Shown piece by piece: positions 4,076 to 60,133 of a stretch of 60,328 nt of DNA. Origin of the DNA: an uncultured Nannocystaceae bacterium (lineage in GTDB: Bacteria; Myxococcota_A; Bradymonadia; UBA7976; UBA1532); the NCBI GenBank assembly GCA_964384025.1, contig CAYLJJ010000029.1, forward strand, positions 1 through 60,328, given 5' to 3'. Numbering within the stretch: the stretch's first letter is position 1; each line of letters opens with the position of its first letter. Made by a program: the position numbers and the translations under genes. The notes under the pieces were generated by a model. It was given only the letters and a program-made list of their open reading frames with translations. It did no database searches and had not been told where the DNA came from.

Positions 4076-4684
4076 TTAATCTTTATCCTCCGAGTTCAAC
4101 TCCTCCTCAGGGAATGCTCGCGCCTTGAGCAGCTTCGAGAGGCCAGGGATCCAGTCAGGGGCCATCACAGGGCGACCCTCAGAGCGAGCAGAGACGAGGG
4201 GACAGCGAACGCCGACGGTGTCTAAATGCCGAGGAGCCAAGCTTTTACGATCTGGGGCCTCCTTGGGCGCGTGCCAATCTCTCCAGAGTAGAACCCACCA
4301 CTCCGTTCGAACTCGCACCACCACCGCCGCCAAGAGCCCATGCTGTTCATAATCGTCCAGCTCCGCAGCCTGCCCTGGGATGATCGCTGAGAGAGGGATC
4401 GAAGCTTCAGAGGTCCCCTTGATCTCTAAGAGCCCTCCAGGACCATCAGGGCGATGAAGATCGATATCAACCCCCGCACCGGGCAGATAGCAGGCGATGA
4501 AGTGCCCCTTATTGCGAGGGTGCCCACGGAGGCGACGGTGAGGGGTGGGGCGCTTACGAACACGCCAGCCCCTCGATCGCCACAGCTCTGCACCCGCCAT
4601 CACCAGAGCCTCGGTCTGCTCTCCTTGAGATCGGGCCTTACGCCCCCCTATAACCTGGGCGCGTTGACTCCTCATTGCGCTCAT
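4076..4684 (-). CDS. small PD-(D/E)xK-type nuclease-like protein (Hjc/restriction-endonuclease-like fold)
   Basis: 202-aa ORF. Its ATG overlaps the recD stop (ATGA), implying translational coupling. Translation shows an E ... D(IDL) ... E-I-K spacing (GEQTE ... GVDIDLHRPDG ... LLEIKGT) typical of the PD-(D/E)xK nuclease core. The assignment is by motif only. Confidence 0.4.
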   Translation of the reverse strand: MSAMRSQRAQVIGGRKARSQGEQTEALVMAGAELWRSRGWRVRKRPTPHRRLRGHPRNKGHFIACYLPGAGVDIDLHRPDGPGGLLEIKGTSEASIPLSAIIPGQAAELDDYEQHGLLAAVVVRVRTEWWVLLWRDWHAPKEAPDRKSLAPRHLDTVGVRCPLVSARSEGRPVMAPDWIPGLSKLLKARAFPEEELNSEDKD

Positions 4685-6663
4685 CTTTCTCCTCTCTCCA
4701 AGCTCTCACTGAGCCCTGAATGTCGCTGTGTCTTGCGGCAGACGGCTCGCTCCAAAAGCTCCATCTCTCCCAAGAAGATTACCCCCCGTCGGCTCCGCGT
4801 CATCGCGGTGTAGAGCAGCTCTCGGCTGAGCAGGGGACCATCTCTAAGGGGCAGCATTACCCCTACCTGATCAAACTCAGAGCCCTGAGCTTTGTGTACC
4901 GTCATGGCGTAGCACAGCTCCAAGCGGCCCCGCAGGGAGTCTAGAGAGAAGCATCTTGGGCCTGTCTCGCCTGGAAAGATCACCATCTCTCGCCACCCAC
5001 CCGGCTGCTGTACATGTAAGACCAGCCCCTGGTCTCCATTAAAGAGCTGACGATCATAGTCGTTGTGGAGCATCATCACTGGCGCTCCAGGCAAAAAGCC
5101 CCCATCGGGTGATCGCCCCGCTTCCTGAGCCAGGATGGCGTGGAGGCGTGCATTGAGTCGCTCAGAGCCGGTCTCAAAGCTGCGAGTCAAGCAGAGCAGA
5201 CGTGCGTTGGCCTGCTGTTTAAAGAGCCGCTCCAAGGCGGGACGCTCCTCAAGCTCCAGGCTCCAGATTCGCTCACGCAGGGCACAAAGCGCCTGATCTT
5301 GAGAGCCCAGCTCCTCGATAAGCCACCACCTGAGGAAAGCCCACAGGTTTTGATGATCTGTAGGGAGCAGCTCCACCCCTTGCCGCTTTAACTCAGAGAC
5401 TCGCCGTCGAGCTTGAATCAGGGCTGTGCCTCGCTCCCAACCCTTGAGGGCGGGATCCCCCCGCTTAACCCTCCAAGCGACCTCTAAGATCGAACGCCCC
5501 CCTGGATTGTCTGCGCGCATCCTAAAGTTGCGGCTCAGGCGCAGAGATTTGGGTCTCGCGATGGGAGCAGCGAGGAGATCACGGAAGACCGCCCCCGCCG
5601 CCACCGAGGGGAGCTGGTCAGCATCTCCCAACAGGACCAAGCGACAGCGAGGGGCCAGAGCAGCCGACAGACGCTCCATCAGAAAGAGGTCGATCATCGA
5701 ACTCTCATCAACGATGAGCACCTCAGCAGAGATGGGGTTGTTGCTGTGGTGTAGGAAACGCTCATTCCTGGGGGAGTAGCCCAAGAGGCGGTGCAGGGTC
5801 TGAGGATCGGGCAACTCGGCAGCCAACTGAAGATCTGCCTCAGCAGGGGCCTTTAGAGCAGCGAGCCCCTCGCGAATCGATTCTCGCATTCGCCAAGCGG
5901 CCTTCCCTGTGGGTGCGGCGAGGAGGAGCTGCCTTGGGGCGGTGCCCAAGCGTACGAGAGTCTGAAGCAGGGCCACTACGATAGAGGTCTTACCTGTACC
6001 AGGTCCCCCAGCGATAAGCGTGAGGCTCTGCTGAGCCGCCTCCACCACCGCTTGCAACTGCTCGTTGGAGAGAGAGAGCGCCGGCTCTCTAGGGCAGCGA
6101 ACCACCTCCTCTAGGGCTTGATGTGCGCGCGGCTCAAAGCGCAGAGGGCTTCTGAGTCGCGCTCCTAGGCTACTCGCCAAGCGCTGCTCAGCGGCCCACA
6201 TGCGCTGAGGATAGAGCCAGCCCTCCAAGAGCAGAAAGGGGCGATCTTGAGCCTCAGGCTCTTCTGCTACGATTCCCTGAAGCTGTCTATCCTGGAGCAA
6301 GCCTTGAAGACGCTCAAACAAACGCCTCGCCCAGGGGCTCTCTCTCTCCTGAGGAGGGGGCTCTTGACAGAGGACTTGAAAGCGTCGGAGCAGCTGCTCT
6401 TGAGCTCCAGGGAGGCGCAGCGGCGAGCGCGTGCTGCCTTGGCGCATATCGGCGATACAGGAGAGCAGAAGGGCGGTCACCGCCAGATGATCCAGAGGTG
6501 TTAGATAGGAGAGAAAGCGCGCCATCTCTAACGCCAAGGCGGGGCTTTCAGGCTCCAGATTAAAGCGGGCGGCGTTCCTGGAGAAGGCGCGGATCAGACG
6601 AGCCTCAACCCCCAGGTCCTCTCCCAGATCTTCACGAAAATATCGCTCCCAAGCGCTCTCCAA
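4681..6663 (-). CDS. recD: exodeoxyribonuclease V alpha subunit RecD (RecD1-type SF1 helicase)
   Basis: 660 aa. Walker A GGPGTGKTS; LAAPTGKAA; TLHRLLG; Walker B LIVDESSMID; GDADQL; C-terminal AMTVHKAQGSEFD and RHSGL. The N-terminal region shows the LYxxRMW and AVTALLLS motifs shared with E. coli RecD. Confidence 0.85.
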   Translation of the reverse strand: MESAWERYFREDLGEDLGVEARLIRAFSRNAARFNLEPESPALALEMARFLSYLTPLDHLAVTALLLSCIADMRQGSTRSPLRLPGAQEQLLRRFQVLCQEPPPQERESPWARRLFERLQGLLQDRQLQGIVAEEPEAQDRPFLLLEGWLYPQRMWAAEQRLASSLGARLRSPLRFEPRAHQALEEVVRCPREPALSLSNEQLQAVVEAAQQSLTLIAGGPGTGKTSIVVALLQTLVRLGTAPRQLLLAAPTGKAAWRMRESIREGLAALKAPAEADLQLAAELPDPQTLHRLLGYSPRNERFLHHSNNPISAEVLIVDESSMIDLFLMERLSAALAPRCRLVLLGDADQLPSVAAGAVFRDLLAAPIARPKSLRLSRNFRMRADNPGGRSILEVAWRVKRGDPALKGWERGTALIQARRRVSELKRQGVELLPTDHQNLWAFLRWWLIEELGSQDQALCALRERIWSLELEERPALERLFKQQANARLLCLTRSFETGSERLNARLHAILAQEAGRSPDGGFLPGAPVMMLHNDYDRQLFNGDQGLVLHVQQPGGWREMVIFPGETGPRCFSLDSLRGRLELCYAMTVHKAQGSEFDQVGVMLPLRDGPLLSRELLYTAMTRSRRGVIFLGEMELLERAVCRKTQRHSGLSESLERGER

Positions 6664-6666
6664 GTT

Positions 6667-7704
6667 TTAGGGCTCCTCGGCGATGCCTTGAATCTCGATC
6701 CCCTCCATAACGATCTCGGTACAGAGCGCCACCGCGTTACAGTCCCCCTCTAGATCAGGATCGCAGTCTAGGGCGGTGCCCTCCTCAATGCGAGCATCAA
6801 AGCGTAGCCCCAGAGCTTGAAAGAGGCTCAGAACGCTTTGAGGATCTGAGCCTGGACGAAGGAAATCAGCGAAGCGCTGACACATCCCCTCAGGGGGTGT
6901 TTCATCTAGGGGAAAGCAGTAGTTCAGCATCCCTTGGAGAAACTCCAGAAAGGCAGCCTCTGTAAGATAGCCGGAGAGCTTACCCCCAAAGAGAGCAAAA
7001 CCCGGCTCCCAGACCTCGACGCTGCCCGCCAACTCCAGCTGAGAGATATTGAGTTCAGAGTTCAGGCGGGGCATGGGGATGGGGATATTTACCGGACCAA
7101 ACTCAAGCCACTGCCCCAAGATCGAGAGCTGCTCAAAGAAGACCAGAGCATTCTGCTCAGGATCCTCCCCTATAAAGCTGGAGGGATGCACCCAGAAACT
7201 TCCTCCTTCACCCAGGGCACCAAAGTAAAAGGAGAGATCACTGCTCTCCAGCTCGTCCACTCGTAGACCCTCCTCCCAGTCATGGAGCTGAGCCATAAGC
7301 AGCAGAGGGATCTCCCCAGTCTGAAGATTGGGAGTTACAAACTGCGCTAAGCCCTGCTCTCCTGCGATAGAAGCCAAGAGCTGGAGGCTGGTCCCCAAGC
7401 TCTCTCCCACCAACTCACAGCCTGCCGCGATCGCGCTGGCCCGATCTCTGGGGATCTCCAAGTAGACGATGCGAGCGGAAGGCCCCCAGGTGTTATGAGG
7501 ACCCAAAGGAGGGCCGATGGCGCCCCCTTCACCTCCAAAGCCACCTATACCCCCTTCACCCGCTTGACCAGCAGCACCACCTCCTCCAGTAGCTGCATCG
7601 GGCACCAACCCCTGATCAACATCAGGTGCTTGAGTGTCATCATCATTGTTACAGGCCCAAAGCAGTAGGCTAAGGCCCAGCAGGATGGTAAAGCGCATAT
7701 TCAC
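6667..7704 (-). CDS. hypothetical lipoprotein with Gly-rich N-terminal linker
   Basis: 345 aa. MNMRFTILLGLSLLLWAC lipobox. GGGGAAGQAGEGGIGGFGGEGG low-complexity tract. Its stop lies 3 bp upstream of the recD start on the same strand. Confidence 0.5.
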   Translation of the reverse strand: MNMRFTILLGLSLLLWACNNDDDTQAPDVDQGLVPDAATGGGGAAGQAGEGGIGGFGGEGGAIGPPLGPHNTWGPSARIVYLEIPRDRASAIAAGCELVGESLGTSLQLLASIAGEQGLAQFVTPNLQTGEIPLLLMAQLHDWEEGLRVDELESSDLSFYFGALGEGGSFWVHPSSFIGEDPEQNALVFFEQLSILGQWLEFGPVNIPIPMPRLNSELNISQLELAGSVEVWEPGFALFGGKLSGYLTEAAFLEFLQGMLNYCFPLDETPPEGMCQRFADFLRPGSDPQSVLSLFQALGLRFDARIEEGTALDCDPDLEGDCNAVALCTEIVMEGIEIQGIAEEP

Positions 7705-7957: not shown

Positions 7958-8358
7958 TGAGGATGCCATTTTGAAATAAAGAAATTCCATGGCTGAATTG
8001 GGGTTTACCAATATTTTTTATGTTTGTTTTGTGGGATGTGTTAGGCAACCAATATTAAAACGATTTTGAGTGCTTGCCCAAGAGCGCTTTGGAGCACCCC
8101 TACTTTTTGAGGCCCTCTAACCATCGCCCTTTGGAGATTGACCTATCCCGTTCAAGTTGTTCAGACATAGGACCGATCGTGAAGATCAAGTAAGTTTCGC
8201 GTTCACTTGCAGTGAATCCAAGCGAGGTGGTGATGTACAGCAGGGAGAGCGTAGAGACCCTTCAATAGCTCAGAAAGCAAAACGCTTGCATTTTCCAAAA
8301 AACAGGAAGGTGAGGCTTGATCGGGCATCAGAAGAGCGTCAGCTGTGAGAGGAGGCTT

Positions 8359-10368
8359 ATGAACGGCTCAGGTGGCTTCAGGCTCAGCGATATGAAGTTA
8401 AAGAGCAAACTCGTGCTGGCGGCAGCTTTTCCGCTGATCTGCGTTGTCGTTGTGGGGCTCACGGCGATGCAGAAGGTCAACTCACTCCATGAGACCACCT
8501 CCTGGGTTGAACACACACATGAGGCGATCCAGCTCGCCCAGGAGATTCAAGGGAGCGTCATCGATCTTGAAACCGGCCTGCGTGGCTACTTGATCTCCGG
8601 AAAAGAGGAGTTTCTTGAACCTTTCCACGCTGGCAAGAAGACGCTGAAGTTGGTGTACTCAAAGACACACAAGCATGTGGCGGACAACCCCGATCAGCTC
8701 AAGCGCATCTCGACAATTGAGGCTCTCGTTAACAGCTGGCTCAAGGAGGCGGCGGTGCCCATGATGACAAAGCGACAAGTCATCAATGAGGGCGCTGAGA
8801 TCCTCAAAAACTTCAAGGAGTTTCAGAGCCGCACTCTTGGCAAGGAGATCTTTGATGAGCTGCGGGTTGTGCTCTCAAGGCTCGAAGCCGCCCTGTCGGC
8901 GAGTGGCCACAAGAAGGCGCAGCCTATCCTGCTTCAAATCCTCCTCGATATGCTGAACATGGAGACGGGCCAGCGCGGTTTTCTGCTCAGCGGACTCGAC
9001 AGCTCCCTTGAACCTTTCAAGAGTGGGCAACTCGCCCTTGAGGGGCACATCAGAGCAATGCAGAGCTATGCGCGCTCAAATCGGCTCAGCGCGATGGAGC
9101 CCCTCATACAGCGCGTGGAGGCGTTGTCTGCTCGTTGGGTGTCTGAGGTCGCCAAGCCAGAGATCCAAGCGCGCTATGCGGTCAACGACATCAAAGTGAC
9201 CATAGATGATGTTGCAGCGGTGGTCGAGAGCGGTATCGGCAAGCGTTATATGGATCAGATTCGAGCTCAGATCGCTGGGTTTCAAGACGCTGAGCGAGCG
9301 CTCCTGAAGCCTCGCCGTGAGTTGGCCAACGCGGATGCTTCCATGGCCACCCAGGTTATCATCATCGGGAGTCTCCTGAGTGTGGTGCTCCTTCTCTTCG
9401 CTATGTTGCTCCTCAATCGCGCAGTGGCTACGCCCATCGCGAAGATCATAGAGCGGATGGAGGAGATCGCGGAGGGGGATCTCAGGCAGCGCGTCGAAGT
9501 TCATGGCGTTGATGAGATTGGGCAGTTCTCCTTATCTTTCAACGCCTTCGTAGAGAAGTTCCAGGTGGCCATGCAGGAGATCGCCAACAATGCGAGCCAG
9601 CTCGCGAGCACCTCTGCACAGATGATGGCGGTCAGCTCTTCCATGGCAAACAACGCTAACGAGACAATGATAGAGGTCAGGACCGCCAGTGACTCAGCTC
9701 AAGTCGTCAGTACGAGCGTACACTCGGTGGCAGGTGCGACCGAGGAGATGAGCGCGTCCATCAGCGAGATCGCGCAGCAAGCAACGCGGGGTGCTCAGAT
9801 CGCCAATGAAGCGACCCACGAGGCTGCGGATACGAATTCGATGGTAAAGCGGCTCGGAGAGGCCAGCCAGGAGATCAACGAGGTGACCCAACTTATCTCT
9901 CTGATCGCGGAGCAGACAAACTTGCTGGCCCTCAATGCCACGATCGAGGCGGCTCGCGCGGGAGATTCTGGGCGAGGGTTTGGGGTTGTCGCTAACGAGG
10001 TCAAGGCCCTGGCGGAGCAGACCCGGAAGGCGACAACGGAGATCGCCATGAAGGTGCAGGCGATTCAGACTGAGACAAACTCAGCTGTCCAGTCCATCAG
10101 CAACATCGCCAAGGTTGTTGAACATATCGATGAGATCTCCTCAATCATCGCTGGCGGCGTTGAGGAGCAGAAGGCCACGACCGCCGAGATCAACTCACGC
10201 CTGACAGATGCGGCGATGGCGAGCACAGAGATTTCAGAGCGCTTTGAGGGAGTCACCCGCGCTGCTGTAGGTACAAATGATGGCGCGGATGAATCAAAAG
10301 GAACCGCCTCAGAACTTTCAAAAATGGCCTCCGCTCTGGAGGCCCTACTGAGCCAGTTCAGGTATTAA
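8359..10368 (+). CDS. methyl-accepting chemotaxis protein with periplasmic CHASE3 sensor domain, HAMP and MCP signalling domain
   Basis: ORF 8317..10368. GAGAGGAGG precedes the ATG at 8359; alternative starts are 8317 and 8392. A TM segment is followed by a CHASE3-like region ([20 protein letters not shown] ... [11 protein letters not shown]) and a second TM. A HAMP domain follows, then the highly conserved MCP hairpin ([34 protein letters not shown]). Confidence 0.85.
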
Positions 10369-24008: not shown

Positions 24009-24166
24009 CCTCCAGATGATCCCCAAAACGCTCCCAAGCCTACAAGGCACAGCCTCTGCACAGGGGCCGCTCACTTCAAAGAACCTCAGCTTCAGGCTTT
24101 ACCCCAGGTCGCTAGAGGAGGAGACTCTCAGCGACCCTTTCAGTGGGAGACACCAAGGGAGAGAGA

Positions 24167-26680
24167 ATGAGTCGAGATCGTATCGAGCGAGATGATTACG
24201 CCGCGCGCAGAGGACGAACCACCAGCAATGAGTTGGTTCTGAGCGTTGGAGAGTATGCCTTCACTCAGGACACCACCTCCGGGATCATCAAGGTCCACAC
24301 AGGGCCTACGGTGGTCAACGTCACCGGCCAGGAGTTCTCTGTCACTTACGACCTGGAGAGCAGGCATTTTAAGCGCATCTCTCTAGAAGAGGCGCGGCAG
24401 AAGAGCCCGCTGGCACCCCAAGGACACTACTGCATCCTCTGGAACCCCGCTCTGGATGAGCGCCACCCTACAGAGCGAGATAAGCTGGTCGCCCCCGACC
24501 TGCTCATGGGGCAGCGGGTTAATATCCCCGGTCCCTGCACCTTCTCGCTCTGGCCCCAACAGAGCGCTCAGGTCTTAGAAGGGCACCATCTGCGCTCCAA
24601 TCAGTACCTCCTGGTGCGGGTCTATGATGAGGAGCAGGCCAACAAGAATTGGGGGACAGCGGTGGTCAAGCCTGCTCAGGGAGAGGCGGAGGAGGAGCTG
24701 ACCGTCCCCGCCCCTGAGGCGCTCAATGTAGGGCGGCTGATCATCATCCGAGGGGATTCAGTCTCCTTTTATATTCCTCCCACCGGGGTAGAAGTGGTCC
24801 CCGATGATGAGAAGAACTATGTACGTGAGGCCCTCACCCTAGAGCGCCTGGAGTACGCCATTCTCATTGATGAGAATGGCAACAAGCGCTATGAGCGTGG
24901 TCCTCAGGTGGTATTTCCCCAGCCCACGGAGCACTTCTTTGAGGAGCAGACCAAAAAGGGGGGGCGTATTCGGGCCTTTAAGCCGATCGAGCTCAACGAG
25001 ATCCAGGGCCTTCACATTAAGGTGATCGCCGACTATGAGGAGCTGGGGGTTCAGTATAAGGAGGGCAAGGAGCTGTTTATCACAGGGAAGGATATCCAGA
25101 TCTACTTCCCCCGTCAGGAACACTCCCTGGTCTCCTACGATGGTAAGTCCAAGCACTTCGCTACGGCGGTGCCGGCTGGAGAGGCCCGCTATGTGATGAA
25201 TCGCAAGACGGGGCAGATCCGCATGGTGAAGGGACCCACCATGCTCCTCCCTGATCCTCGAGATGAGGTGATCGTTCGTCGGGTGCTCTCTGATAAGGAG
25301 TGCGCGCTCTGGTATCCAGGGAATCAAGAAGCCCAGACCTATAATCAGCACCTCCGCAGCCTCTCTCGCCGCGCTCCCACTACCCGGCGGGGTGTGGTCA
25401 GTGAGGGAGAGGTGGGTCGCAGCCGCAAGCTCAAGGGCTATCGTGGGCAGAGGACAGAGAGCAGCAACGTCAGTTCTGACAGCCACGCTGTCGTCGCCGA
25501 TGAGTTCTCGCGGGGCTCAACTTACACTGAGCCCCGCACCGTCACCCTAGACACTAAGTTTGCCGGGGTCCCCACCCTGGACATCTGGACGGGCTACGCG
25601 GTGATGCTTATCTCCCGAACGGGAGAGCGCAAAGTAGAGATGGGCCCGGTCAGTCTCCTCCTGGGCTACGACGAGAGCCTTGAGGTGCTGCAGATGAGCA
25701 CTCAGACACCCAAGAACAAAGAGGAGCTGATCCGCACTGTCTACCTGAGGGTCAAGAACAACCAGGTCAGCGATGAGGTGGAGGCGGAGACCCGCGATCA
25801 TGTCAAGGTCTCAGTGATCCTCTCTCTGCGGGTCAACTTCGAGGGAGAGCCCAAGCTCTGGTTTGAGGTGGAGAACTACGTCCAGTTCCTCTGTGATCAT
25901 GTGCGCAGCCTGCTTAAGGCTCATATCCGCCAGGTCCCTGTGGAGGAGTTCTACGCCCGCACCGAGGACTTTGTCCGCGATGTGATCCTGGGAAAGAAGA
26001 TCGACGATCGGCGAGAGGGTCGCTTCTTCTCCGAGAATGGCATGCGCATCAAGGATGTGGAGGTCCTTCAGGTCAAACTGGGAGACAGCCGTATCGCTCA
26101 GCTCCTTAATGAGGCTCAACACAGCGCGGTGGAGTCCAACATCGCTCTGGCCAAGGCGGAGAAGGAGCTTGAGGTCGGTAAGCGGATGGAGAGCATCCAG
26201 CAAGAGAAGCTGGAGGCGGAGGCGGAGACCGCTCGCCACAAAGCAAATCTCAGCGTAAACGCGATCAAGCGGGATCTAGATGTTCGCTTGAGCCGGGTGA
26301 CCGCCACTGTTCAGGAGCAGCAGGAGCGCATCGAGGCTCAAAAGGCCACCGACATGGTCGCCAACCTCGCTCAGGAGGCTGCCCTAGAGCGAGAACGCTT
26401 GGAGCAGAAACAGGAGTTGGATCTAGAGAAGGAGCGGCAAGGTCTTCATCTGGACAACCTCAACGCAGAGACTCAGGCGATGGTAGCGCGCTTTGGTGCT
26501 GCGCAGGAGGGCTTCTCTGAGGCCCTGCTCTCTCTGAGCCAGAAGGAGACCTTGGTGAAGGTGGCCGAGGCGCTCTCCGTGCAGAAGATGCTGGGAGGGG
26601 ACAGCTTCGTTGAGGTGGTTCAGAAGATCTTTGAGAACAGTCCTCTGGCGGGGCTCTTGAACGCTGATAAGGAGGAGTGA
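24167..26680 (+). CDS. major vault protein (MVP)-like protein: N-terminal vault repeats, SPFH-like shoulder and C-terminal coiled-coil cap-helix
   Basis: ORF-track start is a GTG at 24143; an ATG at 24167 is preceded by AAGGGAGAG. The translation (837 aa) aligns by eye along its whole length with eukaryotic MVP. Examples are [23 protein letters not shown] ~ [36 protein letters not shown] ~ PRHYCTVANPV / [26 protein letters not shown] ~ AIPLDENEGIYV; and [27 protein letters not shown] ~ [25 protein letters not shown]. Further matches are [19 protein letters not shown] ~ ETADHARLQLQLAYNWHFE and a Glu/Ala/Arg-rich coiled-coil tail ~ cap-helix. Confidence 0.75.
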   Translation: [837 protein letters not shown]

Positions 26681-35974: not shown

Positions 35975-36502
35975 TTACATTTCATACTCTCCAAAATCTT
36001 TGGGGTCCATCTCTTCGAGCATCTTAGCCATACGCTGACGCCCCTCTTCATCATCTGCGGAGAAGATGGGGGGCTGCTTCTGGGCTCGTTCTGGGAGAGG
36101 CTGAGCTACGGCCAGCAGCTCAGAGGCGACCCAGAGAGGAGCCCCAGTCCTAAGAGCCAGGGCGACAGCGTCTGAGGGGCGACAGTCGATGCGGCTGATG
36201 GTCTCATCCTGGGCTTGCAGATAGAGATCTGCAAAATAGGTCCCTCCCTTAAGGCCCCTCAGCTCCACTTTGAGGACTTGGGCTTTAAGGGCGTTGATGA
36301 TCATCTTGAGGAGATCATGGGTCAGGGGACGAGGGCTGCGCTTACGCTCTAGAGCGAGGGCGATGGCGTTGGCTTCAGGGGCGCCGATCCAGATGGGCAG
36401 CAGCAGGCGCCCACCCTCATCTTGAAGGAGGAGGATAGCGCGCTTCTTCTGATCCAGGGCCAAACCCCGGATCATAAAACGGAGATAGCGTCTCTTAGTC
36501 AT
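35975..36502 (-). CDS. bifunctional nuclease family protein (DUF151/BFN domain)
   Basis: 175 aa. ILLLQDEGGRLLLPIWIGAPEANAIALALE ... RPLTHDLLKMIINALKAQVLKVEL ... DCRPSDAVALALRTGAPLWV, typical DUF151 motifs. Confidence 0.65.
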   Translation of the reverse strand: MTKRRYLRFMIRGLALDQKKRAILLLQDEGGRLLLPIWIGAPEANAIALALERKRSPRPLTHDLLKMIINALKAQVLKVELRGLKGGTYFADLYLQAQDETISRIDCRPSDAVALALRTGAPLWVASELLAVAQPLPERAQKQPPIFSADDEEGRQRMAKMLEEMDPKDFGEYEM

Positions 36503-42067: not shown

Positions 42068-44086
42068 TCAGCGATAGGAGGCGCGATCGCAACGTTCTAC
42101 CACCACCGCCGGACGATCAACATCAGGCCAGTCAAATCCATGCATATTGGGAACATAGAGGAGGCAGAGCGTATCTGTTCCCGCCTCAAGGGGGAGCCAC
42201 CACCAGAGGTTGAGGATATCGAATAGACCACAACCAAAGAGCTCCTCCAGGATCCCGATATCGGCGGGATCGACGCCCAGCGCCTCCAGATCCTGTTCAC
42301 AGACATACTCCTGATGATCGTCATCTGTTCCTTCGATCGTCTCAACCTCAACGCCTCCAGTCATCAGAACCTCATCTATCTCCAGGATGTTGCAAGCGAT
42401 GACGCTGCGCTCCTCAGAGAAGCGCCTCCAACACTCCGCCATAAGCCCCAGGAGTTGTACTTGAACATCCATATCAGCACCACCAATGAGCGTTCGGGCG
42501 GCGCAGAAGCCACCGGTGGTACAGCTGCTTCGATCAGCTTGACAGTGCATATCCTCTCGACACTCTACACAGCTCTCCTCTTCTGAGTGGCAGAAGAGAT
42601 CACCGCTACAATCGCAGTCTTCTCCACACGCGCCCCCTTGAGATTGATGGCAGCGCCGCTCTTGACCAGGACAGTTAGCGACGAGGCTACACTCCGCCCC
42701 TGTAGGACACTGTCGATCCTCTGCGCAAGGTTCTCCGCTCTGAATCCGACACTCCCCTGCCACCTCATCACAGTGGAGATGAGCGCTGACGGCACAGTCA
42801 TTATCTTCACGACAGGAGGTGCCAGGCCCACCTACACAGACCTGTCCATCACAGATCTGCCCTCGCCTAGGGCACTCATCGATGGTCTCGTTGCAGTTGT
42901 CATCCACGCCATTACAAACCTCGCGAGCATCGGGGTTGACCTCAGGATTCTGATCATCACAGTCAGGCCCCCCGTTGGGGCAGGCCCCACTCCCAAAACC
43001 ATCCCCATCCAGATCGACACACTCACCAGTGCCCTGATGGATACAGGGACGATCCCCCCCTACACAGTCATCATCGATGTTATTGCCGCAGATTTCATCG
43101 CGATTTTGATGGATGCGAGGATCGGAGTCATCGCAATCTTCAGCCAGGCAGCCACGCCCCTCTCCATGCCCATCCTGATCTCGGTCAACGCACTCCTGCG
43201 CGATGGCTCCATCTCGCCCACTGCAATCTTGATCGATCCCATCTCCAGGAATATCCCAAGCGGCGGGGTTGATATTGGGGTTCTGATCGTCACAATCCGC
43301 CCCGATACAGTCATCTCCTGTACCAAAGCCATCATGATCCCGATCTTGACAATGTTGGGGACAGGATAGGTCTTGGCCGTTACAGTCCTGATCGACACCA
43401 TCCCCGCAGATCTCACTGGCCCAGCGATTGATCTGAGCATTGCTGTCATCGCAATCATCGCCACGGCAGCCGGAGCCCACCCCAAAGCCATCCTGATCAG
43501 CGTCAGTACAGTTGGGCATACAGGGCACATCACCTCCCTGGCAGTCATCATCACGGAAATTGCCGCAGATCTCCTCAGCTCCTGGGTTCACCGAGGGGTT
43601 CTGATCATTACAGTCTCCACCTTGGGCGTTTCGATTGGCGTTACAGTTCTGAGCCTCCCAGCCATCCTGATCCAGATCATCACAGGCAACGCAGGCGGGG
43701 TCTCGGCTGGGGAGCTGGCCGTTGCAGTCATTGTCAATCTCATTGCCACAGTTTTCATCTCGACCGGGATGGATCGCTGGATCTCGATCCGCGCAATCTC
43801 CTCCTCGATGAGCAGGGTTGGGGTTACAGCTTCGTTCCTGCCAACCATCACCATCAGCGTCGATACAGCCCGTGCCACCGCCTCCCGCAACACCTCCGCC
43901 GCCAGCCATCCCAGCTCCACCTGCCTGACCTCCGCTGCCCACCTCAGGGCCGCTCGCTTGGCTATCCTCCTCGACTACCCCTCCTCCCCCGGCGCCATCC
44001 AAGGCGACATCTTCTTCATAAGCGACAGGCTCTATCTCCTCAGCGCAGGCAGAGAGCAAAAACAGCGCGGCGATCCAAATCCTCAT
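42068..44086 (-). CDS. secreted Cys-rich protein made of tandem MopE-type putative metal-binding repeats
   Basis: 672 aa. MRIWIAALFLLSACA lipobox/signal. At least 8 repeats of the form C..DxDxDG(F/W)...C...DCDDxxxxxxPGxxExCGNxxDDDCxG, followed by a Cys-rich C-terminal domain. Confidence 0.7.
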   Translation of the reverse strand: MRIWIAALFLLSACAEEIEPVAYEEDVALDGAGGGGVVEEDSQASGPEVGSGGQAGGAGMAGGGGVAGGGGTGCIDADGDGWQERSCNPNPAHRGGDCADRDPAIHPGRDENCGNEIDNDCNGQLPSRDPACVACDDLDQDGWEAQNCNANRNAQGGDCNDQNPSVNPGAEEICGNFRDDDCQGGDVPCMPNCTDADQDGFGVGSGCRGDDCDDSNAQINRWASEICGDGVDQDCNGQDLSCPQHCQDRDHDGFGTGDDCIGADCDDQNPNINPAAWDIPGDGIDQDCSGRDGAIAQECVDRDQDGHGEGRGCLAEDCDDSDPRIHQNRDEICGNNIDDDCVGGDRPCIHQGTGECVDLDGDGFGSGACPNGGPDCDDQNPEVNPDAREVCNGVDDNCNETIDECPRRGQICDGQVCVGGPGTSCREDNDCAVSAHLHCDEVAGECRIQSGEPCAEDRQCPTGAECSLVANCPGQERRCHQSQGGACGEDCDCSGDLFCHSEEESCVECREDMHCQADRSSCTTGGFCAARTLIGGADMDVQVQLLGLMAECWRRFSEERSVIACNILEIDEVLMTGGVEVETIEGTDDDHQEYVCEQDLEALGVDPADIGILEELFGCGLFDILNLWWWLPLEAGTDTLCLLYVPNMHGFDWPDVDRPAVVVERCDRASYR

Positions 44087-46040: not shown

Positions 46041-48206
46041 TCAGAAGAGGCTACACATCTGGACCGAGCAGGGATCACCTCGGCCATCTCCATCTTGATC
46101 CTCTTGGCCCGGGTTAAAGAGCCGAGGGCAGTTATCACAAAGATCACCCAGGCCATCCCCATCTTGATCAAGTTGGGCTGGATCGGGGTGGAAGGGGCAG
46201 AGATCACAGAGATCACCCAGGCCATCTTTATCCAAATCCTGCTGATCTGGGTTGGGCTCAGAGGGACAGCTATCGCAGAGATCACCATAACCATCCCCAT
46301 CCAGATCCTGCTGCTCTGGGTTGGCCACCTCAGGGCAGTTGTCGCTGCCCTGGCAGACCCCATCCTGATCTACAAACTCATCTCCACAGACACCACCCAA
46401 AGAGCGCTCTAAAACAAGGACCCCGTAGGCAACCGCACTGCTCTGTCGCCAATAGCCCCGACGACCATCAGAAGGCCAACTGCCCTCTACATGTTGATTC
46501 TCGGTGAGCTGCCAAGCGAAGTCGTAGTACCAGCCCCGGGGCTCCTCTGGATAGCCATCCAAGACCGGATCTCTTAGACCCCCGATCTCCTCAGCGCTGA
46601 TCCCCTCAGCCTCCTTGGTGACCTCCAGCGCTTTGGCTGCCGCCCAGAGGTGGTAGTAGTAGGACTGCCGCCAGCCACCCACATGATCATCAAAGTGATA
46701 GTTGTCCCTCAGCCAACGCATTCCTGCTTGAACGCGCTGGTCATCAGTTTCTAGACCCGCGAGGCGATAGGACCAGATCCCCGCTGCGGTCATCGCGCTG
46801 GTAGAGGGGGTCTCTAAGCAACCACGATATTTCATACCCCCATCCTCATTTTGAACGTTCTGGAGGAAATTAACCGCCATCGCGAGACTATCGACAGCCT
46901 CTGGAATCTGGCTGGAGGCGGCGCTCAATCCAGCCATGGCGAACTGAGTGGTTGAGAGATCTCCATCTTGCTGAGGGCTGCGATAGTTCCATCCTCCAAA
47001 GTTGCACCACTCACTGTTGCCCGATTGGTGCGCCTTGAGGCTTGATGTCCCCCGAGAGATCGCTTGACTGACCGGGAAGCCAGCCTGGACATCATCTGGC
47101 CCCCCTGTTTCTAGGTAACGAGAGAGGAACATCAAGGCGCTCCCAGTCCCATAGGCGTAGGGCGCACCGCTGCCTTTAAGGGCGGGATCCAGACCCATCA
47201 GATAGGCAGCCATCCTTCTTAAACGCGCCTGATCCTCCTCCTCAGCCCCCTCATAGCCACGCACGGGCGCCTGCCAATGAGCGCTGGCGCGACGCTCAAG
47301 GAGGGCGAGACCCGCCAAACCTGTAGACCAACCATCAACCGCGCCCTCATGCTCTTGAGCGCGGAGCCAATTCAGACCCCGCTCAATCCCCTCATCAACA
47401 CGAAGTCCAAAAGGGGTCAAGGGTCCCTCAGCGATGCCTGCCATGTTCAGCTCTGGCTGCTCCTGAACATGTATGGGGAAGGAGAGCCCCGTACAGAAAT
47501 CAGGGTGTCCCTCTTCGCAGGCGGAGAGCTGAAGTCCATAATCTCCAGGGGTTCGAGTCATGAACTCAAAGCGAAGCCCCTCAGCGAGGCTGTCAAAATC
47601 AGCCTCCTCTGGAGTCTCTAGGATCTCCCAATGAAGCTCGATGGGATCCCCTTCGTTGTCCTGAACAGAGGCCAGGAGGCTTAGAGCCTCGCAGACCAAG
47701 ATGAACTTAGAGGGTTCAAAGCTCAGGGACTCAATAAAGGGAGGGGAGTTGATCGCCGCCATCACGTCCAAGCCGCCTCTGGAGGGCGCTTGACAGCGCG
47801 CCATCAGGAGCAGCTCGGTGGTCTCTCCCTCGCGGATATCTACCCTCTCCTCTCCAGGCTCACATTGAGGCGCGGGCAGTCCAGGGCTCTCCATTGGAAT
47901 CACCCGTACCAAGTAGATCCCAGCCTCCAAGACCGTGTAGGCGTCAGCGAAACGTCGCCCCTCAGGACCCAGATGCCCTGGCAGCCCCTCCTCCTCAAGA
48001 GGAAGATAGCGACTACTGAGCAAGATCCCATCCTCGCGCTCCACCTCAAAGAGAAATCCCGCCAGTTCCAGATCTCCAGCACTCAACTGGAGACTTAAAC
48101 TGCCCATCATCGGGAGCGGAGCCCCCTCCAAATTATCGTGATTTTCATTGCAGGCGGGGAGGAGAAAGAGGCTAAAGATCAAGAGCTGTAAGATGTTCCG
48201 GAGCAT
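46041..48206 (-). CDS. lipoprotein with prenyltransferase/terpene-cyclase-like alpha/alpha-toroid repeats and C-terminal thrombospondin type-3 (TSP3) Ca-binding repeats
   Basis: 721 aa. [19 protein letters not shown] lipobox. Several Q..DG.W repeats ([33 protein letters not shown]). The C-terminus carries 4-5 DxDxDGxGDxCDxCP..xNP.Q.D motifs typical of TSP3 repeats. Confidence 0.55.
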
Positions 48207-48438: not shown

Positions 48439-50133
48439 TCAGCTTCGCTTAGCCAAGCGGATCAACTCTGTAGCGTTAGCGCGAGTTGTTCGAGTGATCT
48501 GAGCACCACCCAGCATCCGCGCCAGCTCTTCAACCCGCGCTTGATGACTCAGCTGCTCTACGCTGCTGAGCGTACGCCCCCTCTCCACCCGCTTGGAGAC
48601 ATGTAGGTGTTGATCGCCTTGAGCAGCGATCTGAGGCAGATGAGTGATACAGAGAGCTTGACGGCTGACGCTCACCGCCTTGAGCTTGCGACCGATCGCC
48701 TCGGCGGTGGGTCCCCCCACTCCCGTGTCCACCTCATCAAAGAGATAGGTGTCCACTGGATCTTGAGCAGCGATGACCCGCTTGACGGCCAACATAAATC
48801 GGCTCAGCTCTCCTCCGCTGGCGATGCGATGGATGGGTAGGGGCTCCTCTCCAGGGTTGGCGCTAAAGAGAAACTCCACCCGATCTGCACCTTTGAGGCT
48901 GACAAAGCGCTCAGCCACCCTCAAACCAAGGCTGGTAGGCTCTAAGCGAAGGCGCAGGGTGGCGCGCTCCATCGCCAGATCGCTCAGCTCACCCTGCACC
49001 GCTTCTACGAGCGCCTCAGCCCCCTCTCCGCGTGCCTGACTCAACAGCTCAGCCTCTCGAAGCAGCCGCGCTCCGCTCTCAGCGCGGCCTTGGTGGAGGC
49101 TCTCTAAGATCTCCTCGCTCCGAGAGAGTTCACTCAGTTCTCTCTCCAGGAAGCGTTGGTGTTGGATCACCTCAGCGATGCTGCTGCCATACTTTTTGCG
49201 CAGGTAGGCGAAGAGGGCGAGCCGCGCCTCTACCTGCTCTAGACGCCGGGGATCAGCGCTCAGCTCACGGCCATAGGCTCCAATGCTGTGAGCGGTCTCC
49301 TCAACGATGGCGAGGGCTGAGGAGAGCTCCTTGAGCAGAGGATAAAAGCTGGGCTCCAGCTCAACAAGCTGCTCCAGACGAGGGAGAGAGCGCGCGATGA
49401 GATCAGCCGCCGCGCCCTCCATGGAGTACAGCTCCCACTGAATCTGATCTGAGGCTTGCCTAAGCCGCGCCACATTCCCCAGACGAACCGACTCCTGTTC
49501 TAGTTTCTCCTCCTCATCGGGATCTTTAAGTTGGGCGCTGTGCAGCTCTGAGAGTTGAAAACGCAGATAATCTTCTCGTTGGGCTCGCCCTCTTAGATTG
49601 GCTTCCAAGGCTGCGATGCGCTGATCCCAGCCCTGAAGTTCTCGCCAAGCCTGCTCTACTCGCGCTCGTAGAGGAGCTAGGTTGGAGACACGATCAAGGA
49701 TCTCCAGCTGAGCATCAGGGTGCCGAAGGCTGTGATGTTCATGCTGCCCTGAGACATCTACGAGACCCTGAGTCAGACGGCTCAAGAGCCCCACGGTAGC
49801 GAGGCAGCCGTTGATATAGACTCGGTGGCGGCCATTGCGAGAGATGATTCGGCGGATGAGCAGCTCATCTCCAGCCCCTAGGCCCGCCTCCCCTAAGCGT
49901 TCGCGGACGCTGGGTTGACGGCTGAGATCAAAGAGCGCCTGTACCTCGGCCCTAGAGGAGCCAGTGCGGATCAGCTCTGAGCGAGCGCGTCCTCCCAAAA
50001 GCAGAAGTAGCGCGCTGATGAGGATCGATTTACCCGCTCCGGTCTCCCCTGTGATCACCGTGAGCCCTGGCTCCAGCTCAAGATCGACCCGGTCGATGAT
50101 GGCGAAGTCAAAGATTGAGAGGCTCCTGAGCAT
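48439..50133 (-). CDS. recN: DNA repair protein RecN
   Basis: 564 aa. MLRSLSIFDFAIIDRVDLELEPGLTVITGETGAGKSIL (Walker A) and C-terminal LFDEVDTGVGG signature/Walker B. Confidence 0.9.
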   Translation of the reverse strand: MLRSLSIFDFAIIDRVDLELEPGLTVITGETGAGKSILISALLLLLGGRARSELIRTGSSRAEVQALFDLSRQPSVRERLGEAGLGAGDELLIRRIISRNGRHRVYINGCLATVGLLSRLTQGLVDVSGQHEHHSLRHPDAQLEILDRVSNLAPLRARVEQAWRELQGWDQRIAALEANLRGRAQREDYLRFQLSELHSAQLKDPDEEEKLEQESVRLGNVARLRQASDQIQWELYSMEGAAADLIARSLPRLEQLVELEPSFYPLLKELSSALAIVEETAHSIGAYGRELSADPRRLEQVEARLALFAYLRKKYGSSIAEVIQHQRFLERELSELSRSEEILESLHQGRAESGARLLREAELLSQARGEGAEALVEAVQGELSDLAMERATLRLRLEPTSLGLRVAERFVSLKGADRVEFLFSANPGEEPLPIHRIASGGELSRFMLAVKRVIAAQDPVDTYLFDEVDTGVGGPTAEAIGRKLKAVSVSRQALCITHLPQIAAQGDQHLHVSKRVERGRTLSSVEQLSHQARVEELARMLGGAQITRTTRANATELIRLAKRS

Positions 50134-53444: not shown

Positions 53445-54151
53445 AGCCCCAACTTATGAACAATGATCCCTTCTGAGGCGCGCACACTCTTGAGGCACCA
53501 ACGCGCCAGCAATAGGCGTTGCCGCGCTTGAGGCAGATCTCCCTGAGATCCCTCCTCTGCCCGCATCGCTCGAACTCGAGGGACCAGATGAGAGAGGCTC
53601 ATCCCCACCGAGACAGAGACGTTGAAGCTCTCGGTGAAACCATACATCGGGATACGAAAGCTCTCATCACAGCCCGCCAAGGTCTCTGGCAACAGCCCTG
53701 TCTTCTCACTGCCAAAGAGCAGCAGGAGGGGCTCATCGATCGGGATCTGGCTTAACTCAAAGCGGGCGCGTGGCCCTGCACCAAAGACCCGCATCCCTCG
53801 TGCTCTCGCCCAGCTCATCATCGCTTCAGGGCTGGACAGGCGGTGGAGGTCTAACCAAGCGTGGGCCGCCATGCTGACTTGGCTGGAGACTCCAGGGAGC
53901 GGGAAGGCATGGCGGGCCTCTACGCTGACTACATCCTGGAGTCCCATCCCTTCCGCGCTGCGCAGGCAGGCTGCACCATTGTGGCTGTGGTAGAGATCTT
54001 CTAAACCCAACGCCAAGCTCTCCAAACGCAATGAGAGGACCTCCTGCATCCGTCTCAGGCGCTCCTCAAGCATATGGGGGGAGAGGGCCTCAATGATCGC
54101 CTCAACGGGGAGCTGATGGCCCTTAATTTCTAGGGTGTTGGGGATATTCAT
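53441..54151 (-). CDS. SpoU/TrmH-family RNA 2'-O-methyltransferase
   Basis: 236 aa. C-terminal FRIPMYGFTESFNVSVSVGMSL (SPOUT knot motif IPM.G..ESLNVS.A). Confidence 0.7.
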   Translation of the reverse strand: MNIPNTLEIKGHQLPVEAIIEALSPHMLEERLRRMQEVLSLRLESLALGLEDLYHSHNGAACLRSAEGMGLQDVVSVEARHAFPLPGVSSQVSMAAHAWLDLHRLSSPEAMMSWARARGMRVFGAGPRARFELSQIPIDEPLLLLFGSEKTGLLPETLAGCDESFRIPMYGFTESFNVSVSVGMSLSHLVPRVRAMRAEEGSQGDLPQARQRLLLARWCLKSVRASEGIIVHKLGL

Positions 54152-54673: not shown

Positions 54674-55573
54674 TTGAGACGTAGAATTAGTATACTAACA
54701 GCAATTTTACTGTTGATGAGTTGTAAAACTCAGTCAGAAATTTGCGGTGAAAATGCAAGATTTAACAATCCAGAGTGTTTTCCCGATGGTGGACCATCAG
54801 GAGGAGGCCTTAAGTATATAAATTTACCTGTGATTGGATCTGACAATGAGTTAGAAATTAAAATGAAATGTGGTGGATATCAAACAAGAGTACTGTTTGT
54901 ACCTGCCGATGGAGAGCCTGAATATGGATTTGTAATTCAAAAGGTTGCTTTCAATATAACTGGATCAGTACCGGAGTATTTTGACCTAAATATTCTGGGA
55001 GTTTTTGATGATGGAAACGATTTTTGCGCTGAAATGGTTAATCATAATATTGTATTCTGGGAAATGTTCCCAGTACACAATAGATATTTAGAACCTATAG
55101 ATATTAATTCGGCTAAACAAGTTCACAGTGATGAACAACTTTTTTCTGTTACGACATACGCAAAATTCTTCACATCCGAAGATGTACGCGAATTTTACGA
55201 TGTTAATGAGTTTACACCATTTGATGATCTTATCAAGGTTATGGGATTTTGTGAAAAACATGTACCAGATCCACATGCTAGCGATTGGAGAAGAAAAATA
55301 ATTCCTGATAACCAAAGATTTTGTCCCTCATTTGCAATAATTGATAGAGAAATTGAATTTTTTGATCCTTATTTAAGCGATGAAAATTTAGGATATATGA
55401 TTGCAAAAGAACTTCCAGTATCAATTGAAGAGCCTACTATATGGACTTCGAGTTCAAATAGTGCATTAGTACGTGAATGGAGTATTAAAACAATAAATTG
55501 TTGTGATTCGACTGATGAGGATATTGATTCGACAATATTACTAAAGGTCCCTCGTTTGGTGGGCAATGATTGA
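54674..55573 (+). CDS. hypothetical lipoprotein (low-GC island gene 1)
   Basis: 299 aa. MRRRISILTAILLLMSC lipobox. AT-rich codon usage distinct from the rest of the window. Confidence 0.5.
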   Translation: MRRRISILTAILLLMSCKTQSEICGENARFNNPECFPDGGPSGGGLKYINLPVIGSDNELEIKMKCGGYQTRVLFVPADGEPEYGFVIQKVAFNITGSVPEYFDLNILGVFDDGNDFCAEMVNHNIVFWEMFPVHNRYLEPIDINSAKQVHSDEQLFSVTTYAKFFTSEDVREFYDVNEFTPFDDLIKVMGFCEKHVPDPHASDWRRKIIPDNQRFCPSFAIIDREIEFFDPYLSDENLGYMIAKELPVSIEEPTIWTSSSNSALVREWSIKTINCCDSTDEDIDSTILLKVPRLVGND

Positions 55574-56213
55574 TTCAATCATGAATATGAAGAAACCAAT
55601 ATTGATATTGTTAATTACAATGCAAGTATATGGTTGTAATGTTTCGTCAGTTTACTATTTAAGTGATAATCAGGTCAAAATAATAAGATATTTGCACAGT
55701 TTGCCAAGTTGGGAGGCCGTTTTCGAATATCCTGTTGAATTCCATAAGTTTTTTATGGCTGCATATTTATTAAAATCTGTGAATGATGATGAACGAAGAG
55801 AAATTCTCGCAAATTTTGTTCGAATTGCACCTGATTATCCACCTAATAGATTTTTTGAAAGAAGATTTTATATTCTTTTAAGGGTTATGTTTGAATTACC
55901 AAACAGAATTTCGCAAAATGAAGCAAGACCTTTCCATAATTGGATATATACCGGCAATATTAGAAATAAAAAATGGTTTTCAATAACCTGGCCGGTGATT
56001 ATTGGCGCGAATAAGTCTAAATTAATAATAAAACACCCTACTTTCAGAGAAAGTTATGATGGAATGATGGAATATGACTTTATGGTTGATAGATATAAGT
56101 TTAGGTCGCGCAAAGAATTGCGTATACATCAATATTCAATACTTAAACAAATCAAGTATCCAGAGGGGCAAATGCAGTTTTTTAGAAAACAAAAAGGAGG
56201 AGAAAAAAGATGA
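55566..56213 (+). CDS. hypothetical secreted/lipoprotein (low-GC island gene 2)
   Basis: 215 aa. MNMKKPILILLITMQVYGC lipobox-like. Overlaps both neighbours, indicating an operon. Confidence 0.45.
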   Translation: MIDSIMNMKKPILILLITMQVYGCNVSSVYYLSDNQVKIIRYLHSLPSWEAVFEYPVEFHKFFMAAYLLKSVNDDERREILANFVRIAPDYPPNRFFERRFYILLRVMFELPNRISQNEARPFHNWIYTGNIRNKKWFSITWPVIIGANKSKLIIKHPTFRESYDGMMEYDFMVDRYKFRSRKELRIHQYSILKQIKYPEGQMQFFRKQKGGEKR

Positions 56214-59614: not shown

Positions 59615-60133
59615 TTGTCCACCAGATGGATGGAGCATCGTACATTGCGGGAGTACTCCGGGTTGTATCGAGTAAATTTTATACCTTATAAATATCTGCT
59701 CAGCCTGACTTACTGGATTGGCGGAACTCTTGCCCTTGCAATAATCGGATTACTTATTTTAATATGGTTTAGTTTTTCCCAAGAAAAAGAGGCCCCATGC
59801 GTTATTATTGCAACAATAAATGATGTAAAAATCTTCCAAAGCGAAGTTGATTTTATGCAGGCGCAGTTAATTTTGCAAGGAGGATCAGAGGACCAATATA
59901 GTGCGATGCTTGAGGTCCTTTGGCAGGAAAATGAGCGACAACGTCGCAAATTAATACCTGCTCCGACACGAGCTGATGCCCGACGGATTGCAGTAAGACG
60001 ACTTCGCCATGAACGTCTAAGTAATCATACGAATCCACAACTGAAACTTGGGAATATACCACAAAATACTCAGTTTACGGATTGTGGACTGAATATTATT
60101 AGCAAGGAAGCATATAATCGTGTTTTTCAGTAG
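59615..60133 (+). CDS. hypothetical protein (172 aa) inside the repeat-bounded segment
   Basis: AT-rich ORF with one TM-like segment (LALAIIGLLILIWF). No family recognised. Confidence 0.3.
   Translation: MSTRWMEHRTLREYSGLYRVNFIPYKYLLSLTYWIGGTLALAIIGLLILIWFSFSQEKEAPCVIIATINDVKIFQSEVDFMQAQLILQGGSEDQYSAMLEVLWQENERQRRKLIPAPTRADARRIAVRRLRHERLSNHTNPQLKLGNIPQNTQFTDCGLNIISKEAYNRVFQ

Follow-up and report, generated by a model that had tools for sequence, protein, structure and literature searches.

Gene Organization of the recD Locus

The contig CAYLJJ010000029.1, assigned to an uncultured Nannocystaceae bacterium (NCBI assembly GCA_964384025.1), was analyzed over its entire length of 60,328 nucleotides (nt), hereafter termed the window. 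On its minus strand, between positions 4076 and 7704, three open reading frames (ORFs) follow one another with near-zero spacing: a lipoprotein-like gene, recD and a small gene for a protein of 202 amino acids (aa), which we assign, from profile searches and structure modeling, to the RecU family of Holliday junction resolvases (hereafter, the recU-like gene). The features of the locus are listed below in the direction of reading.

6667..7698, minus strand: lipoprotein-like gene, 343 aa from the ATG at 7698 (an alternative GTG start at 7704 gives 345 aa)
6664..6669, minus strand: junction between the lipoprotein-like gene and recD, consisting of a TAA stop and one AAC triplet, followed by the TTG of recD in the same frame
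4681..6663, minus strand: recD, RecD1-type helicase of superfamily 1B (SF1B), exodeoxyribonuclease V alpha subunit, 660 aa, TTG start (identified with TIGR01447, Pfam and PDB)
4681..4684, minus strand: ATGA overlap between the recD stop and the recU-like start, the TGA being common to both (direct sequence reading)
4076..4684, minus strand: divergent RecU-family Holliday junction resolvase (predicted), 202 aa (identified with phmmer, profile searches, AlphaFold and Foldseek, and PHROG 843)

Both coordinates and sequence agree with the initial annotation of this stretch, according to which the upstream gene ends 3 bp before recD: the recD start lies 3 nt past the upstream TAA, and the two genes share a single reading frame. 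The same annotation had the downstream gene starting on the recD stop codon, and the ATG of the ATGA tetranucleotide does overlap the recD TGA, with a GGAG motif located 4 nt 5' of this ATG, within recD itself. This geometry suggests that translation of the recU-like gene is coupled to that of recD, while the spacing of the lipoprotein-like gene, recD and the recU-like gene indicates that they are probably carried by a single transcript. Scans of the region for promoters, terminators and Rfam families returned nothing over background.

A Predicted RecU-Family Resolvase Encoded Downstream of recD

When searched with phmmer against 1.84 billion cluster representatives, the 202-aa protein retrieved 71 matches at E ≤ 1e-3 and 20 at E ≤ 1e-10 (its own cluster included), the best true homologue being 50% identical (E = 2.5e-37). 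A chance ORF in high-GC DNA, which we considered as an alternative, is ruled out by these 71 clusters and by the E-value of the best match (2.5e-37). A word-index homology search over 5.8 billion proteins matched the protein to itself only; the single sequence had no match in Pfam at E-values up to 1 and none in NCBIfam, and it returned noise only from the PDB sequences. A direct match exists in the PHROG database, where the single sequence hits PHROG 843 (“Holliday junction resolvase”) with an E-value of 3.9e-14.

The relatives of the protein were then used as a profile. An alignment of 68 sequences was assembled from the window protein and 67 of its phmmer matches, all with E < 1e-3. Pfam RecU (PF03838) is matched by 50 of these 68 sequences (best E-value: 9.7e-26), while no such match was obtained for the window protein or for 17 of its 67 phmmer matches. 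Compared with the PDB, the alignment profile recovers the sequences of five RecU crystal structures (E = 5e-21 to 1e-17) over nearly their full length, and a search with the family profile yields 1629 proteins, with PF03838 carried by 120 of 120 proteins among the matches listed.

Regarding the catalytic residues, four columns of the alignment are invariant across the 68 sequences (G21, E25, D73 and K89) and five others nearly so (G60, G81, Q105 (at least 90%), L109 and G116), while E87 is the majority residue of its column and is, together with Q105, invariant in the nine closest sequences. The initial annotation had described an E...D...E-x-K arrangement, which can be recognized in E25, D73 and the E-x-K motif E87-I-K89. 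Counting along the alignment with 1zp7, residues E25, D73, E87, K89 and Q105 of the window protein correspond to E36, D88, E101, K103 and Q120 of Bacillus subtilis RecU. We take E36, D88, E101 and K103, together with a conserved glutamine, to be the active site of the latter enzyme. Hence, judging from the alignment, the predicted catalytic residues E25, D73, E87, K89 and Q105 are all intact in the window protein.

The structure of the protein was modeled with AlphaFold (AF2). The prediction from the single sequence was unusable, with a predicted local distance difference test (pLDDT) score of 42, and the alignment-based model, which reached a mean pLDDT of 93 and a predicted template modeling score of 0.86, was used instead. 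In Foldseek searches of the PDB with this model, RecU chains occupy the first 11 ranks (E = 4e-9 to 7.5e-6; template modeling (TM) score to the target: 0.58–0.78), and archaeal Hjc proteins form a second tier (E = 1e-5 to 1e-3). Among the viral structures of BFVD, phage proteins bearing the name RecU match best (E = 4.5e-13). The model further features a beta-hairpin at residues 41–66, i.e., the extra “stalk” element of RecU-type proteins, and ends with an acidic C-terminal tail (residues ~183–202, FPEEELNSEDKD; positions 4076–4135, minus strand), which is absent in homologues and modeled with a pLDDT of about 63. This tail could be a protein-docking element.

The fold proposed in the initial annotation, i.e., that of Hjc and restriction endonucleases, can thus be given a family name, since RecU comes first and Hjc second in the structural comparison. 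Because the evidence consists of profiles, catalytic residues and structure rather than of a direct Pfam match, we regard the 202-aa ORF as a real gene whose product is predicted to be a divergent member of the RecU family and a PD-(D/E)xK nuclease. Cleavage of Holliday junctions would be its expected activity.

Comparison with Known RecU and Hjc Proteins

The window protein resembles the RecU proteins of Firmicutes and Mollicutes (PF03838; structures 1zp7, 1rzn, 2fco, 1y1o and 5fdk) in its fold (target-normalized TM score up to 0.78), in the constellation E/D/ExK/Q, in a K-x-P-x-P segment preceding the beta-hairpin and in its length of about 200 aa. It differs from the solved RecU proteins by a sequence identity of only 16–22%, the lack of a direct Pfam match and the additional acidic C-terminal tail. 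Gene context differs as well: the cellular recU gene precedes ponA, the gene of a penicillin-binding protein, whereas the gene of the window follows a recD that is closest to those of Myxococcota, not of Firmicutes. To our knowledge, RecU is restricted to Firmicutes, Mollicutes and their phages, other bacteria using RuvC. According to the literature, RecU takes the place of RuvC in Firmicutes and Mollicutes (PMC1193525).

The best direct matches of the window protein, in sequence as well as in structure, are found among phage RecU-like resolvases (PHROG 843; BFVD entries such as A0A8S5MGG3 and the RecU of Aeribacillus phage AP45), and its nearest homologues (40–50% identity) lie in phage-like strings of genes, one of them directly after RecE-like and RecT-like genes. 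Unlike these phage genes, that of the window sits in a chromosomal housekeeping region, has a host-like composition, is apparently coupled to a recD of the cell and lacks recognizable phage neighbors. Archaeal Hjc proteins share the nuclease superfamily and the E...D...ExK layout of the window protein, but the structural match is weaker (TM score of about 0.35–0.6; root-mean-square deviation of 6–8 Å), there is no match at the sequence level, and the beta-hairpin and C-terminal elements are of the RecU type. Phage RecU-like resolvases are already known (PHROG 843). The gene of the window is a further member of the RecU type, in an unusual context that was seen only once.

Family and Start Codon of recD

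The product of recD reaches 340.5 bits with TIGR01447, the NCBIfam equivalog model of RecD (cutoff: 310.15 bits), over positions 16–596 of the 597 of the profile, while it stays below the cutoff of the RecD2 model TIGR01448 (285.8 bits for a cutoff of 500). Likewise, its top match among solved structures is Escherichia coli RecD (1w36_D; E = 6e-63, 216 bits), the match to Deinococcus radiodurans RecD2 being weaker (E = 3.5e-38, 135 bits). The protein contains the Pfam domains AAA_19, AAA_30, UvrD_C_2 and SH3_13, along with the SF1B motifs GGPGTGKT and VDESSM. Altogether, sequence comparison identifies the helicase as RecD1-type, as the initial annotation had it.

The protein starts with ESAWERYF, residues that align with conserved N-termini in its homologues; therefore, the TTG start of recD is correct. 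The protein does not have the 5–10 additional N-terminal residues found in its relatives. In E. coli, the RecD1-specific N-terminal domain contacts RecC. In the window protein, the alignment to TIGR01447 begins at profile position 16, corresponding to residue 46, and over the first ~140 residues there is a good alignment with relatives encoded next to recB, whereas a phmmer alignment with E. coli RecD starts at residue 140 only. Compared with the RecD1 subunit of RecBCD (TIGR01447; 1w36 chain D), the protein shows a full-length match above the cutoff, the SF1B motifs and the SH3 domain, and its N-terminal region is conserved with that of recB-coupled relatives. Its gene, however, does not adjoin recB or recC but lies between the lipoprotein-like gene and the predicted resolvase gene.

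Relatives of the Two Genes and Their Context

The context of seven near homologues of the RecU-like protein was examined. None of the seven adjoins recD, and all five with informative contigs are phage-like, the contigs of the other two (P0124 and P0130) being about 1 kb or shorter and thus uninformative. The homologue with 50% identity (P0122) belongs to a row of seven short genes, most of them overlapping, and two of these genes match PHROGs of unknown function. P0126 is likewise found in a row of small genes that overlap. The neighbors of P0123 are genes for helix-turn-helix repressors, a ParB-like protein, an integrase and an amidase, while those of P0125 encode a DUF5131 protein, two methylases, a LexA-like DNA-binding protein and a phosphoadenosine phosphosulfate (PAPS) reductase. 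Finally, P0135 is part of a compact phage recombination module with overlapping genes (L026, positions 1–2259), in which the genes of a RecE-like exonuclease and of a RecT-like annealase come directly before that of the RecU-like protein, the latter overlapping the annealase gene.

In a neighbor-joining tree, the window protein groups with P0122, P0123 and P0135 in a loose radiation outside the tight PF03838 cluster, though the branches are long and the tree is indicative only. When the three closest sequences were used to scan genomes, viral contigs and metagenomes, distant Firmicutes recU genes, two distant viral contigs and two metagenome contigs (one of them already known) were recovered, none of them linked to recD. 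A tblastn search of deposited phage genomes gave one weak match, in Phage nd4 (29% identity, E = 1e-5).

The closest database relatives of recD are 47–51% identical, and those that are named come from metagenome-assembled genomes (MAGs) of Myxococcota or Myxococcales. Four of these relatives were studied in context: two (P0004 and P0006) overlap the end of a recB encoding 1183–1186 aa, the two others (P0003 and P0005) stand alone, and none of the four is followed by a recU-like gene. Since the recD of the window and these four relatives are roughly equidistant (48–53% identity), stand-alone recD genes do not form a separate subfamily, and gene order is fluid in the group. In a Myxococcales MAG (GCA_020633555.1; L009, positions 7965–9185), a stand-alone recD is overlapped over 4 bp by a 406-aa gene without Pfam family. 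Neither this gene nor a 186-aa gene that likewise follows recD (L007) is related to the 202-aa protein, and the latter gene, too, lacks a Pfam family. The position 3' of recD seems to collect differing coupled genes in this group. The recD–recU-like pair itself was found in five metagenome contigs, all at least 99.99% identical to the window.

Genomic Neighborhood

Pfam scans of the 60-kb window (ORFs of at least 150 aa up to position 54151 and the largest ORF beyond) did not find recB, recC or ruvC, in line with the initial annotation, which had noted that neither recB nor recC adjoins recD. Three ORFs at the 3' end, left out of these scans (54674..55573, 55566..56213 and 59615..60133), cannot correspond to recB or recC because they encode 172–299 aa and are far too small. 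As the window is the whole contig, it is to this contig that the search for recB, recC and ruvC applies. According to Rocha et al. (2005), RecD1 is systematically associated with RecBC (PMC1193525); hence, other parts of the genome presumably carry recB and recC, and RecD presumably works within RecBCD.

The surroundings of the locus include genes for a methyl-accepting chemotaxis protein (MCP), a CBS-domain protein and a signal peptidase, nusB, a riboflavin operon, fabF, plsX, secA, a sigma factor gene and recN, while the flanking genes of 375 and 490 aa belong to no recognizable family. No PHROG match was found among the neighbors of the recU-like gene, and neither an integrase nor a tRNA gene lies close by. 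With a GC content of 0.61, a GC content of 0.62 at third codon positions (GC3) and a synonymous codon preference similar to that of recD and of the housekeeping genes of the contig, the recU-like gene is not a recent arrival.

As for the lipoprotein-like gene, the ATG at 7698 is a likelier start than the GTG at 7704, because it is preceded by a GGAGG motif 5 nt upstream and because the public gene call also gives 343 aa. Read by eye, the N-terminus (MRFTILLGLSLLLWAC) resembles a signal peptide with a lipobox-like L-W-A-C, and the residues LLLWAC at positions 11–16 (from ATG 7698) fit the pattern L-x-[AG]-C, even though a tryptophan at position -2 is unusual. The signal-like segment is followed by a Gly-rich stretch (GGGGAAGQAGEGGIGGFGGEGGAIG) and then by a Cys-containing C-terminal domain. 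Searches of Pfam, NCBIfam, PHROG, PADLOC and the PDB sequences gave zero matches. A putative lipoprotein is a reasonable by-eye reading of this gene product.

A Domesticated Phage Resolvase Behind recD?

The explanation that we favor, and consider rather probable, is that a phage-type RecU resolvase has been domesticated and is co-expressed with RecD, a subunit of RecBCD, from a three-gene chromosomal operon. The recU-like product would be a Mg2+-dependent PD-(D/E)xK homodimer nicking two strands of a four-way junction, encoded by a gene that would have come from the phage branch of the RecU family before being domesticated. Ribosomes ending recD would restart on the overlapping ATG, so that synthesis of the resolvase would be tied to that of RecD. 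Within RecBCD, RecD would act when double-strand-break repair begins, and the pathway would end with the cutting of Holliday junctions by the RecU-type dimer. Because the ATGA overlap would tie translation of the resolvase to recD, the enzymes that initiate and those that finish recombination would be made together. Phage modules that encode an exonuclease, an annealase and then a resolvase follow the same logic. Prophage-derived resolvases are known in bacterial chromosomes. For the recU-like gene, the relatives of its product point to a phage origin; if it is phage-derived, the gene would have arrived long ago and have been kept with an intact active site.

Several points weigh against this explanation. 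The search for recB, recC and ruvC covers the 60-kb contig only, which makes the place of RecD in RecBCD an assumption. Taken by itself, the window protein falls below detection by Pfam RecU, even at E-values up to 1. The pairing of the two genes occurs in one population only, and conservation therefore does not speak for their adjacency. Lastly, expression of the 202-aa gene and resolvase activity of its product are both deduced from sequence.

Other explanations have to be weighed against the same evidence. That the closest homologues of the 202-aa protein all occur in phage-like contexts, that its best structural matches are phage RecU proteins and that the flanking genes of 375 and 490 aa belong to no recognizable family would also be expected from a leftover of a degraded prophage, or from a selfish insertion behind recD, without any role in host recombination. 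We regard such a remnant as unlikely, given that no other phage gene is recognizable nearby (be it by PHROG, an integrase or a tRNA gene), that base composition and codon use are host-like, that all catalytic residues are intact and that an exact start/stop overlap with recD is hardly what a decaying remnant would display. At the other extreme, RecD and the RecU-like nuclease might form a dedicated two-protein machine working without RecBC, e.g., with RecD translocating on, or branch-migrating, a junction that the resolvase then cuts. Matched synthesis is suggested by the ATGA overlap, recB and recC were not found within 60 kb, the lineage-specific acidic tail of the nuclease could dock, and in a further Myxococcales MAG, a recD that stands alone is overlapped by a gene of 406 aa, albeit an unrelated one. 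Yet, as a conserved module, the dedicated helicase–nuclease pair envisaged in the initial annotation is not supported, the pairing being repeated in no relative of either protein (with the nearest recD 51% identical, this concerns more distant relatives only); moreover, recD is an ordinary RecD1, its nearest relatives include recB-coupled genes with which its N-terminus is conserved, and characterized RecU enzymes work with RuvAB, not with RecD. This makes a two-protein machine quite improbable in our eyes. We give still less credit to a physical interaction between RecD1 and a phage-derived RecU-type resolvase in the manner of RuvAB and RuvC, by which the two could act without RecBC or replace RuvC outside Firmicutes.

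The initial annotation had also raised the prospect of a defence-type effector, i.e., an anti-phage module with the helicase as sensor or motor and the nuclease as effector. RecD-like helicases do occur in several defence systems, and recD has partial PADLOC matches (typeIV_RecD, 1.3e-50; PDC-S68, 9e-44). However, these matches, which belong to several unrelated systems, span only the common helicase core, and it is the housekeeping equivalog that recD matches over its full length; the nuclease, a member of a junction-resolvase family, and all neighbors are without PADLOC match; and no other defence gene lies nearby, the context being one of core metabolism and housekeeping genes. We therefore hold a defence function to be highly improbable and abandon this suggestion.

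If the favored explanation is true, i.e., if a host-adapted RecU-type gene is tied to recD, the locus would represent the recruitment of a phage resolvase by a recombination operon of the cell. The locus also draws attention to a divergent RecU branch that goes undetected by the Pfam model. The practical value lies mainly in better annotation, and the importance of the finding would rise if the two proteins formed a complex or if the genome were devoid of RuvC or RecBC.

Other Features of the Contig

Two further genes of the contig are related to DNA metabolism: one for a protein with a bifunctional nuclease domain (BFN_dom; 35975–36502, minus strand) and one for a RecN-like SMC protein (48439–50133, minus strand). 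Toward the end of the contig (~54000–60328), the GC content drops from about 0.58 to 0.31–0.42, a clear deviation, and the codon usage of three ORFs (54674–55573, 55566–56213 and 56210–58429) is clearly foreign, MopE-type Cu-binding repeats being encoded by the third; this stretch is probably an acquired island. Large secreted-looking proteins with MopE Cu-binding or thrombospondin type 3 repeats are encoded at 42068–44086 (minus strand), 46041–48206 (minus strand) and 56210–58429 (plus strand), and MopE repeat proteins flank recB–recD in related Myxococcota MAGs as well. Finally, an 845-aa protein encoded at 24143–26680 (plus strand) matches the shoulder domain of the Major Vault Protein (E = 1e-21) and contains a vault repeat, which identifies it, at the sequence level, as a bacterial homologue of the shell protein of eukaryotic vaults.

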